Source: Escherichia coli
GTDB lineage: Bacteria; Pseudomonadota; Gammaproteobacteria; Enterobacterales; Enterobacteriaceae
Reading direction: 5' to 3' (one strand)
DNA: 64,000 bases
NCBI RefSeq assembly: GCF_009931435.1
Contig: NZ_CP043414.1
This document shows positions 5,190 through 8,603 of this stretch, piece by piece (within the stretch, counting starts at the first letter, position 1; each line of letters opens with the position of its first letter). The notes beneath the pieces were generated by a model. That model was not told where the DNA came from and made no database searches. It saw nothing but the letters and a program-made list of their open reading frames with translations. A program made the position numbers and the translations under genes.

Positions 5190-5395
5190 AACTAACCTCG
5201 GGATGAGTAAGGAGACTTATCGGCAACGACGCCGGTATGTTTCTAATATGTTACATATTATCGGGGACATTGTTCCAGACAACAATCTGTTTTATTCAAT
5301 AGGTATGATAGTCGCAGGCTTTGGTACGAAATCATGGCGAACCGCGCGCACTTCGGGTAATCTGCGCGCTTCGCGCAGCGCTGGTGGAGAAAAGC

Positions 5396-6433
5396 ATGAA
5401 CGATGAGATGAAAGGTAAAAGCGGCAAGGTCAAAGTGATGTATGTCCGCAGTGATGATGATTCTGATAAACGTACCCATAACCCGCGTACCGGGAAAGGG
5501 GGCGGGCGTCCAGGAAAATCTCGTGCCGACGGTGGCCGTCGCCCCGCCCGCGATGACAAACAAAGTCAGCCCCGTGACCGCAAGTGGGAAGAGTCTCCGT
5601 GGCGCACGGTTTCCCGCGCGCCGGGTGATGAGACGCCGGAAAAGGCCGATCACGGTGGCATCAGTGGTAAAAGTTTTATTGATCCGGAAGTGTTGCGTCG
5701 TCAGCGTGCGGAAGAAACCCGCGTCTACGGCGAAAACGCCTGTCAGGCACTGTTCCAGAGCCGCCCCGAAGCGATTGTTCGCGCCTGGTTTATTCAGAGC
5801 GTAACGCCACGTTTTAAAGAAGCATTGCGCTGGATGGCGGCAAACCGCAAAGCGTATCATGTGGTGGATGAAGCGGAACTGACCAAAGCGTCAGGCACGG
5901 AACATCACGGCGGCGTTTGCTTCCTGATCAAAAAGCGTAACGGTACAACCGTGCAGCAGTGGGTAAGTCAGGCAGGTGCGCAGGATTGTGTACTGGCACT
6001 GGAAAACGAATCTAACCCGCATAACCTGGGTGGCATGATGCGCAGTTGCGCGCACTTCGGCGTGAAAGGCGTCGTGGTGCAGGATGCGGCGTTGCTGGAA
6101 TCCGGTGCGGCTATCCGTACCGCAGAAGGCGGTGCAGAGCATGTTCAGCCGATTACTGGCGACAACATTGTTAACGTGCTGGATGACTTCCGCCAGGCGG
6201 GTTACACCGTAGTGACCACCTCCAGCGAGCAGGGTAAACCGCTGTTCAAAACCAGTCTGCCAGAGAAAATGGTGCTAGTGCTGGGTCAGGAATATGAAGG
6301 GTTACCGGATGCCGCACGCGATCCGAACGATTTGCGCGTGAAGATTGATGGTACGGGCAACGTTGCCGGGCTAAATATCTCTGTTGCAACCGGCGTTTTG
6401 CTTGGTGAATGGTGGCGTCAGAATAAAGCCTGA
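5396..6433 (+). CDS. yfiF: SpoU/TrmH-family RNA 2'-O-methyltransferase with basic low-complexity N-terminal extension
   Basis: ORF track 370 aa; start moved to ATG 5396 ([14 protein letters not shown], 345 aa); C-terminal SpoU-like region, N-terminal K/R/G/D-rich ~95 aa. Confidence 0.8.
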
Positions 6434-6480
6434 TAAATCAGCCGGGTGGCAACGCTGCCATCCGGCGTTTTCCTGCAAAT

Positions 6481-7170
6481 TTACTCACTTTCTGCCGGTA
6501 ATACTGGCATCCAGTCAATCGGTTTCTCGCCACGTTGTTCCAGCCACTGATTTGCCAGCACAAAATGGTTGCAGCCAAAGAACCCACGATGCGCCGAAAG
6601 CGGTGATGGATGCGGCGCTTTCAGTATGTGATGGCGTTGTTTATCAATAATCGCCCCTTTCTTCTGTGCATGTGATCCCCACAACAAAAACACCACGCCT
6701 TCGCGATGCTGGTTGATCAGGCTGATGACTTTATCGGTGAAGGTCTCCCAGCCGAGGCTAGCGTGGGAATGCGCCTGACCTGCGCGAACCGTCAACACAG
6801 TATTGAGTAGCAGAACGCCCTGACGCGCCCAGCTTTCAAGATAACCATGATTAGGGCGGGTGAAACCGGGAATAGTATTTTCCAGCTCTTTATACATATT
6901 CAGCAGTGACGGCGGTGTCGCAATGCCGGGGCGAACGGAAAATGCCAGACCATGCGCCTGTCCCGGTCCGTGATAAGGATCCTGGCCGAGAATCACCACT
7001 TTAACGTCACCCAACTCTGTAAAGCGGAACGCGTTAAAGACATCCTTTTGTGGCGGATAGATAGTGACGCCGGCCTGCCGCTCGCTGGCGACGGTCTGTA
7101 GGGTATTAAGAAAATAGGGTTGCTGCTTCTCTTCAGCCAGCACGTCATGCCAGGTTAATTCGTTTGCCAT
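6481..7170 (-). CDS. ung: Uracil-DNA glycosylase
   Basis: 229 aa; [18 protein letters not shown] and [14 protein letters not shown] motifs. Confidence 0.95.
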
Positions 7171-7300
7171 CTCGCTCTCCCGCGAATCTTCAATCCGCCT
7201 AGCTTAACTGCTTCTTTCTACAGAACAAAATCATGCTCATTTTTTAGACTTAAACGAGTGCAAAAAAATGTAAATTGGTAAAATTTCACACCTGCATAAG

Positions 7301-7314
7301 TTGATGTAAAACAA
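7301..7314 (+). promoter_or_regulatory. Distal FNR/CRP-family half-site pair (TTGATgtaaAACAA) upstream of grcA
   Basis: Partial match to TTGAT-N4-ATCAA, centred 53 bp upstream of the perfect site at 7354-7367. Confidence 0.45.
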
Positions 7315-7353
7315 TAAAATCCATTTGCGACCACACTTGATGTGTGGTTTTTA

Positions 7354-7367
7354 TTGATTTAAATCAA
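7354..7367 (+). promoter_or_regulatory. FNR binding site, perfect TTGAT-N4-ATCAA, grcA promoter
   Basis: Sequence TTGATTTAAATCAA about 108 bp upstream of grcA ATG. Confidence 0.65.
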
Positions 7368-7474
7368 AGAATCAAGGGTGTTTGAGGAGTATATATACAC
7401 TCAAGCAACAATGGTTTTACCAATTGGCCGCGACAGGCTAATCAAATCAAATAATTTTGCCGGGGAGGCATCAC

Positions 7475-7858
7475 ATGATTACAGGTATCCAGATTACTAA
7501 AGCTGCTAATGACGATCTGCTGAACTCTTTCTGGCTGCTGGACAGCGAAAAAGGCGAAGCGCGTTGCATCGTTGCGAAAGCAGGTTTTGCAGAAGACGAA
7601 GTGGTTGCAGTAAGCAAACTGGGTGACATTGAATACCGTGAAGTTCCAGTAGAAGTTAAACCAGAAGTTCGCGTTGAAGGTGGTCAGCACCTGAACGTAA
7701 ACGTTCTGCGTCGTGAAACTCTGGAAGATGCAGTTAAGCATCCGGAAAAATATCCGCAGCTGACCATCCGTGTATCCGGTTATGCAGTTCGCTTTAACTC
7801 TCTGACTCCGGAACAGCAGCGCGATGTTATCGCTCGTACCTTTACTGAAAGCCTGTAA
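7475..7858 (+). CDS. grcA: Autonomous glycyl radical cofactor (spare part for pyruvate formate-lyase)
   Basis: ORF track 133 aa; start at ATG 7475 ([13 protein letters not shown], 127 aa); C-terminal glycyl-radical motif RVSGYAVRF. Confidence 0.95.
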
Positions 7859-7880
7859 GGTTTAAGTAGCAAGTTACTAA

Positions 7881-7911
7881 GCGGAAGAGGGCGACCTCTT
7901 CCGCTTTTTTT
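7881..7911 (+). terminator. Intrinsic terminator after grcA
   Basis: GC-rich hairpin GCGGAAGAGG-gcga-CCTCTTCCGC followed by T7 run. Confidence 0.75.
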
Positions 7912-7913
7912 CA

Positions 7914-8501
7914 TTAACAGAAAATGCGCACCGCGCAATAGACCAGCAACAACGCCAGCACGATATTTAACTGGCGACCATACTGGCGAAACAATCGCTG
8001 AAACAGATGCCCCGCCAGCGCCCAGCACACATTGCCAAAGGTCCCAATCATTGCCAGCAAAACGCTGACGCCAATCACCCAGCTTAACGCCTGCGTTTGT
8101 GGCAGGATAAATGTCGACAGTGCTGTAATGCCGTACAAAATAATTTTGACGTTCACAAACTGCAAAGCAAAGCTGGCCCAGAAGCTGATCGGTTTGGCCT
8201 GAAGTCCGTCTTCCTTGGTTGGACTGGTAGCGATTTTCCACGCCAGCCAGACAATATATGCCGCTCCTGCCCAACTCAAAAGGTGCACCGCTGCTGGGTC
8301 AATAACAGCCAGTGAAAATGAAATTCCTGCACACAGTAACATCACAATCAAAAATCCCAGACTCATCCCTGCCAGCACGTGGGTACTCCGACGAAATCCA
8401 TGCGACGTGGCAGAGCTAAGAGCGAGTATATTGTTTGGTCCTGGCGTCAGGGCGGTAATCAGGGTGTAGGTCCAAAAAGCACTTAAAAGGGTCGGTGTCA
8501 C
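7914..8501 (-). CDS. eamB: LysE/RhtB-family cysteine/O-acetylserine exporter
   Basis: 195 aa, multi-pass hydrophobic protein; synteny between grcA and yfiE. Confidence 0.88.
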   Translation of the reverse strand: MTPTLLSAFWTYTLITALTPGPNNILALSSATSHGFRRSTHVLAGMSLGFLIVMLLCAGISFSLAVIDPAAVHLLSWAGAAYIVWLAWKIATSPTKEDGLQAKPISFWASFALQFVNVKIILYGITALSTFILPQTQALSWVIGVSVLLAMIGTFGNVCWALAGHLFQRLFRQYGRQLNIVLALLLVYCAVRIFC

Positions 8502-8603
8502 TTGTTATCTCCTCTGTTTTGGTAGACAGTACCCGACACAAAACATTTAAAAAAATGAATGTTTTCACATTCTAAATTCGATATTTTCGATAGGTTTGGA
8601 GTT

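Follow-up and report, generated by a model that had tools for sequence, protein, structure and literature searches.

The divergent intergenic region between ung and grcA (also named yfiD) of Escherichia coli is the subject of this analysis. It occupies positions 7171-7474 of the window, i.e., the whole 64-kb stretch of DNA that was analyzed, in which the local gene order is yfiF (+), ung (-), grcA/yfiD (+), eamB (-) and yfiE (+). An earlier note on this DNA took the region to be the grcA promoter, which is borne out by the gene order and by the published architecture of the yfiD promoter. The accompanying remark that no plus-strand gene lies upstream is true for the intergenic region, with ung encoded on the minus strand (Table 1). 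The 304-bp region is found in 5,425 of the 5,426 complete E. coli genomes, with 100% identity to strain 2020CK-00188 and 98% identity to K-12. An identity of at least 99% to the present strain over 7171-7474 is reached by only 1 of these 5,425 genomes, most of them falling between 95 and 99%. The variation within E. coli is clustered in an ung-proximal stretch (7245-7262) and in an inverted repeat between two FNR sites (the dyad, 7327-7347), and the FNR sites, the -10 region and a PdhR-like box are invariant.

Some features at the edges of the region can be mentioned in passing. Between the convergent genes yfiF and ung, a hairpin composed of GCCGGGTGGCA-acgc-TGCCATCCGGC (6441-6466) and followed by GTTTTCC looks like a shared bidirectional terminator of both genes. 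On the ung-proximal side of the intergenic region, GCTCATTTTTTAGAC (7235-7249) matches a Fis-type consensus, GNNYAWWWWWTRNNC, with 0 mismatches. At the opposite end, an ACA triplet (7473-7477) directly adjoins the AUG of grcA (CACATG), and MazF reportedly cuts the yfiD mRNA at such an ACA site to yield a leaderless mRNA.

Table 1. Coordinates of the genes, sites and candidate sites discussed in the text (window positions).
Feature	Position	Strand	Sequence or extent	Basis and remarks
yfiF	5321-6433	+		further upstream, convergent with ung
ung coding sequence	6481-7170	-		divergent from grcA
Upstream PdhR-like half-site	7273-7283		AATTGGTAAAA	perfect inverse of 7415-7425
FNR II	7301-7314		TTGATGTAAAACAA	1 mismatch; centred at -93.5; down-regulating upstream site (Myers 2013 supplement)
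Candidate IscR type-2-like operator	7326-7352		27-mer with core CCACA-N7-TGTGG at 7331-7347	centred at 7339 (-62); motif from PMC4055776
Inverted repeat (hairpin)	7330-7348	+	ACCACAC-TTGAT-GTGTGGT	terminator scan, repeat search, RNA fold
T-tract	7348-7353		TTTTTA	abuts FNR I; doubles as 'terminator U-run' and as WWWW flank of the IscR-like site
FNR I	7354-7367		TTGATTTAAATCAA	0 mismatches; centred at -40.5; class II activating site (Myers 2013 supplement)
Probable -10 hexamer	7390-7395	+	TATATA	7390-7393 invariant in 40/40; position relative to the start inferred
ArcA site	7391-7422			predicted under the ArcA ChIP peak (Park 2013 supplement)
grcA transcription start (+1)	7401	+		derived from the ArcA-site coordinates; agrees with FNR I at -40.5
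PdhR-like box	7410-7424		AATGGTTTTACCAAT	just downstream of +1; 1 mismatch to the consensus ATTGGTNNNACCAAT
grcA (yfiD) coding sequence	7475-7858	+		

The FNR site pair and the core promoter

The perfect site FNR I and the degenerate site FNR II had been described earlier as lying 53 bp apart. Both were recovered at the same coordinates and with the same spacing, their centres being located at 7360.5 and 7307.5, respectively. The sequence of FNR I is the sole perfect TTGATNNNNATCAA in the 64-kb window. With at most one mismatch allowed, five FNR-like sites occur in the whole window against 2.2 expected, so that a single site is unremarkable. What is remarkable is that two such sites lie just upstream of grcA at a distance of 53 bp. 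According to papers that cite the original studies, FNR bound at -40.5 activates yfiD and the site at -93.5 down-regulates this activation, and owing to this damping, expression peaks when oxygen is low (Green 1998 and Marshall 2001, cited in PMC10208419 and PMC3445967). An FNR ChIP peak is present at yfiD, with both sites predicted beneath it, 53 bp apart (Myers 2013 supplement). The expectation of a class II activating site downstream thereby stands, but the upstream site, which had been regarded as a further activator site, is the published down-regulating one.

ArcA and PdhR also act on the yfiD promoter, the latter as a repressor. In the Park 2013 supplement, a predicted ArcA site, TGGTAAAACCATTGTTGCTTGAGTGTATATAT, is placed at -10/+22, and its reverse complement corresponds to window positions 7391-7422. 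This sets the transcription start of grcA at 7401 and, as a result, the two FNR sites at -40.5 and -93.5. The yfiD promoter of K-12 represents the same locus with identical FNR sequences (TTGATTTAAATCAA, and TTGTTTTACATCAA on the other strand) and the same 53-bp spacing. While the FNR sites show no difference from K-12, position 7334 is a C here and a T in K-12, and it is this C that gives the inverted repeat a perfect stem in the present strain. The FNR architecture of the grcA promoter is already known. This part adds no novelty, being a textbook case of repression by an upstream-bound activator.

The conservation of the FNR pair was followed in 80 grcA loci fetched from other species, and the counts add the window and K-12. 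Two FNR-like sites at a distance of 52-53 bp are present in 62 of 81 Enterobacterales grcA loci, or in 62 of the 82 sequences when the window and K-12 are both counted, and the genera that keep the pair include Citrobacter, Enterobacter, Kosakonia, Cedecea, Yersinia, Serratia, Dickeya, Pectobacterium and Erwinia. Across 40 Enterobacteriaceae sequences, the half-sites of FNR I are invariant (40/40), and the non-consensus A at 7311 in FNR II is retained in 36. Such a conserved mismatch would fit selection for a weak site.

The promoter contains further repeats. A 23-nt inverted repeat (7301-7323 / 7345-7367) is 87% complementary, most of which follows trivially from the palindromic nature of the two FNR sites. 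The additional 9 nt consist of mirror-image A/T-rich flanks, TAAAATCCA and TGGTTTTTA, ending in CCA and TGG, and these could reflect either a need of FNR for extended flanks or an ancient inverted duplication. The PdhR-like box, which was scored against the PdhR consensus ATTGGTNNNACCAAT, has nearly invariant columns in the 40 Enterobacteriaceae sequences. In addition, a perfect 11-nt inverted repeat is formed by AATTGGTAAAA (7273-7283) and TTTTACCAATT (7415-7425), the arms of which are 131 nt apart. Each arm is a PdhR-type half-site, the downstream one belonging to the near-consensus PdhR-like box, and a pair that brackets the promoter in this manner would suit repression by looping.

The inverted repeat and intrinsic termination

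An inverted repeat is indeed located between the FNR sites as noted earlier, though its loop had been parsed one base off ('ttga' followed by TGTGTGGT). Its arms, ACCACAC (7330-7336) and GTGTGGT (7342-7348), span 7 bp with 100% complementarity around the 5-nt loop TTGAT, and an outer G-T pair (7329/7349) brings the number of pairs to eight when folded as RNA. The hairpin RNA has a free energy of -12.1 kcal/mol (z = -3.9), and 1 out of 200 shuffled sequences folds equally well. A terminator pattern scan, in this strain only, matches the hairpin with eight pairs, four of them G-C, a 5-nt loop and five T. On shuffled sequence, the same scan returns 1.3 such patterns per 1.1 kb, so that the terminator-like look alone does not go beyond chance. 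The loop region also repeats TTGATGT of FNR II at 36 bp, as a direct repeat. A third FNR half-site, TTGAT in the loop, was considered and set down to coincidence: it is unconserved in other genera and altered in many E. coli strains (ATCGAT).

The T-run that follows the 3' arm runs on into the first bases of FNR I. Positions 7349-7351 are T in 39-40 of the 40 Enterobacteriaceae sequences, including those that have no dyad. As the run is invariant even where the dyad is missing, its conservation would stem from its role as a flank of FNR I, and its location beside the dyad would create the appearance of a terminator by coincidence.

The stem itself shows a different picture from one genome to another. 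To assess covariation, an ungapped alignment was made from 34 distinct Enterobacteriaceae sequences with the two FNR sites as anchors. No stem covariation is observed in these 34 sequences, with 69.7% of the cells paired versus 66.4% after shuffling and a covariation score that 109 of 500 shuffles attain; 24 of the 34 sequences have a broken 7335-7343 pair. Among E. coli strains, the free energy of the hairpin ranges from -14.2 to -3.6 kcal/mol (through values such as -7.8 and -6.5), the present strain being at the strong end, and the K-12 stem contains a G-U wobble. In E. albertii, the dyad and its stem are lost (-2.8 kcal/mol). Most other genera carry only CCAC/GTGG, i.e., a stem of 4-5 bp with a 9-nt loop. 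Finally, the Enterobacter cloacae group has an intact CCACA-N7-TGTGG that is located 6 bp further upstream and separated from the T-run, and a dyad 6 nt away from the T-run is incompatible with intrinsic termination.

Transcripts that could end at the hairpin were also considered. No promoter-like (sigma-70-like) site is predicted across 6900-8000, the upstream plus strand included, and an Rfam search of 6400-8600 in E-value mode gives no match, only chance-level eukaryotic hits. Upstream plus-strand transcription does exist: antisense to ung, the Adams 2021 supplement reports a 3' end at 2717222(-). Mapped through a coordinate offset, this end falls at about 6702 of the window, on the plus strand inside ung and about 650 nt upstream. 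It would be Rho-dependent if its table is the Rho (bicyclomycin) comparison that it appears to be, and it implies either that transcription reads through from yfiF or that ung contains an antisense promoter. Among the Adams 2021 entries listed, no 3' end lies near the hairpin (2,715,9xx-2,716,7xx), and the grcA terminator is likewise absent there, so that this Term-seq result weighs only lightly against termination.

Rho-independent terminators and the hairpin are alike in having a G+C-containing stem, a short loop and a T run directly after it. Unlike these terminators, the hairpin lies inside a promoter, has no predicted promoter upstream, and has a stem that is neither conserved nor covarying. 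The hairpin is real, but it is probably not a terminator. A role as intrinsic terminator or insulator would require plus-strand transcripts from the ung-antisense side to end in the U-run at about 7349-7357, thus shielding FNR I and the core promoter. The scan pattern and fold of this strain and the transcription inside ung speak for such a role, but the degraded, non-covarying stems of the relatives, the displaced dyad in Enterobacter and the lack of a predicted promoter or Rfam match make it very improbable. Hence, the terminator-like look that had been noted is confirmed by scan and fold, and the terminator or insulator function attached to it is not, given the lack of covariation, the polymorphic stem, the displaced dyad and the absence of a predicted promoter.

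A candidate IscR operator at -62

Considered as DNA, the dyad resembles the type-2 motif of the Fe-S regulator IscR, xxWWWWCCxYAxxxxxxxTRxGGWWWWxx (PMC4055776). The core CCACACTTGATGTGTGG (7331-7347) is the sole exact match to CCxYA-N7-TRxGG in the 64 kb, for which 2.6 matches are expected; the core together with a 3' WWWW flank has an expectation of 0.42 per 64 kb. The 3' flank of the IscR-like site is TTTT and meets WWWW. The 5' flank, GCGA, is not A/T-rich (1/4 A/T in this strain), and the flanks of other E. coli strains (GCAA, ACGA, GTGA) and of other genera (ATxA) fit WWWW better.

In the 40 Enterobacteriaceae sequences, the conserved columns are A 7327, CC 7331-7332, T 7343, GG 7346-7347 and the T-tract 7348-7352. 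A pyrimidine at 7334 and a purine at 7344 are each found in 39 of the 40, and the seven central positions of the dyad are mostly unconstrained. Judged from this alignment, conservation tracks the IscR type-2 motif and not the stem. The polymorphisms within E. coli are mostly neutral to the motif (7336, 7338, 7342 and the 5' flank) or preserve the base class (7334, C to T). No part of the core promoter is more polymorphic among E. coli strains than the dyad region, and two out of eight strains break a core base. The base that follows the Y is T in most genera, versus A in the structure-based motif, and most validated sites have T as well. Outside the Enterobacteriaceae (Yersinia, Serratia, Dickeya, Erwinia and Hafnia), the dyad is absent, though the FNR pair is present.

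A known site offers a direct comparison. The IscR site of hyaA (hydrogenase-1), which served as the reference for binding assays and motif definition, reads CCACAC-N6-TATTG-TTTT, and the grcA site reads CCACAC-N6-TGTGG-TTTT. Both share the half-site CCACAC, the CC-to-GG spacing and the T-rich 3' flank, both genes are expressed without oxygen, and the 3' half of grcA, TGTGG, is nearer to the consensus than TATTG of hyaA. Unlike hyaA, grcA has a G/C-rich 5' flank in this strain, and its candidate site is positioned at -62, upstream of an FNR class II site. By analogy with the anaerobic promoter context of hya, apo-IscR could add aerobic repression.

For scoring, a symmetrized position-specific matrix was derived from six validated E. 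coli sites (Table S4, PMC4055776) and the Yersinia lcrF site. The dyad of the window obtains 7.5-7.8 bits, ranking 26th among about 64,000 positions, and that of K-12 obtains 8.4 bits. The validated IscR sites score 9.4-18 bits under leave-one-out, all above the window dyad. Among the 34 distinct Enterobacteriaceae sequences, the best match in the spacer between the FNR sites coincides with the dyad position in 27, at 9-19 bits. The shuffle p-value is at most 0.02 in 26 of the 34, and omitting hyaA from the matrix does not alter the result. The DNA flanking these loci, 316 kb in total, contains one match of 12 bits or more per 23 kb and one of 15 bits or more per 316 kb. Of 41 promoters, 16 reach 12 bits and six reach 15 bits, counts that overstate the independent support as the orthologues are phylogenetically related.

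The fallback option of the earlier note, a DNA-level site for another regulator, is the one that the evidence favours. We propose that the inverted repeat is an unusually self-complementary local version of a conserved DNA dyad at -62 that would fit an IscR type-2 operator, a reading to which we assign a probability of roughly 0.4. The candidate IscR operator at -62 is the sole new element in this promoter, as proposed here from its sequence. A literature search returned no IscR binding and no IscR-dependent expression for grcA (yfiD), nor a relevant E. coli IscR ChIP-seq dataset, and the yfiD literature examined assigns no function to the spacer between the FNR sites. Note that IscR was chosen after the dyad had been compared with many regulator motifs, which entails a multiple-testing cost.

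Competing explanations and regulatory meaning

One possibility is that the dyad has no separate function. The spacer would then be conserved due to the constraints of FNR and RNA polymerase (A/T-rich inner flanks, docking of the alpha C-terminal domain, bendability for the interplay between -93.5 and -40.5), and the palindrome would have arisen by chance. The mirror-image inner flanks of the FNR sites within the 23-nt inverted repeat, a T-tract that persists in dyad-less genera, the high polymorphism of the dyad region in E. coli, the marginal IscR score of the window site and the chance frequency of terminator-like patterns are all consistent with this explanation. In particular, TGG and the T-tract, a mirror-image flank that is shared with FNR II, could be conserved for an FNR or polymerase reason and not for IscR. 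However, the conserved 5' half (A 7327, CC 7331-7332 and the pyrimidine at 7334), which is 15-25 bp away from the FNR sites, is left unexplained. Enterobacter, moreover, keeps the whole CCACA-N7-TGTGG after the 6-bp shift, and matches of 12-19 bits are obtained with an independently derived protein motif. We regard the absence of a separate function as rather unlikely.

The dyad might also be an operator to which some regulator different from IscR binds. This could be an uncharacterised transcription factor or a nucleoid protein with specificity for ACCAC-N9-GTGGT. Its conservation in both sequence and position would agree with this, IHF ChIP-chip enrichment overlaps both FNR sites (Myers 2013 supplement), and yfiD is also acid-regulated (Wyborn 2002). 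On the dyad itself, however, the consensus sequences of IHF, CRP, ArcA (as a direct repeat), PdhR and Fis give no acceptable match. The boxes of NrdR, RutR, NtrC and the LysR type (T-N11-A), as these motifs are generally described, do not fit its spacing or orientation. To our knowledge, the IscR motif is the only one that fits both half-sites as well as the spacing. An operator for another regulator is judged unlikely, and the IscR operator is kept as the preferred reading.

Published reporter constructs bear on both termination and repression. Three fragments of the yfiD promoter have been compared, namely yfiD-WT, yfiD-m and yfiD-P1 (PMC10208419). When their primers are mapped on the window, yfiD-WT covers -111 to +18, yfiD-m covers the same stretch with point mutations in FNR II and an intact dyad, and yfiD-P1 starts at TGTGTGG (7341, -60) without the 5' half-site of the dyad. 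In that study, yfiD-m gave a very low signal in air, and yfiD-P1, with its moderate or high aerobic basal expression, was set aside (PMC10208419). A rise in aerobic expression upon deletion of the 5' arm could be expected if a terminator were lost, but strong terminators flank the reporter inserts of these constructs (PMC10208419), so that a lost insulator is a poor explanation for the leak of yfiD-P1. The natural explanation is the loss of an aerobic repressor site, yet the deletion takes away 51 bp and not just the half-site.

If the dyad is an IscR operator, it may constitute a third input between the two FNR sites, by which the Fe-S status would limit oxygen-independent transcription of grcA and would help to shape the low-oxygen peak. 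This functional extension is tentative, and we hold it to be somewhat less probable than the operator itself. In the published part of the scheme, FNR at 7354-7367 activates transcription from +1 (7401), and FNR at the imperfect site 7301-7314 damps it, resulting in the low-oxygen peak. At class II promoters, the alpha C-terminal domain of RNA polymerase docks on the DNA next to the activator site. An IscR dimer, mainly in the form of cluster-less apo-IscR, which would be abundant in air or under Fe-S stress, may occupy about -75 to -49. The DNA covered in this way would adjoin FNR I, where the alpha C-terminal domain is expected to dock, and binding at this location might keep basal, oxygen-independent transcription low.

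If true, IscR would repress grcA in air, as it does a small number of other anaerobic genes (hya, hyb, nap). The candidate IscR input would tie the expression of its product, a PFL-repair protein, to the Fe-S status. It would also explain the aerobic leak of truncated yfiD promoters in metabolic engineering and define a sequence that could be retained or deleted in applications of the grcA promoter as an oxygen switch. More generally, a hairpin and T-run within a promoter is not necessarily a terminator and may be a protein operator beside an A/T-rich activator flank.

A second match to the IscR matrix is located at 7392-7418 (-10 to +18). With 10.3 bits it is the fifth best in the window, and it overlaps both the predicted ArcA site and the PdhR-like box. 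This match is probably driven by TGGTTTT.
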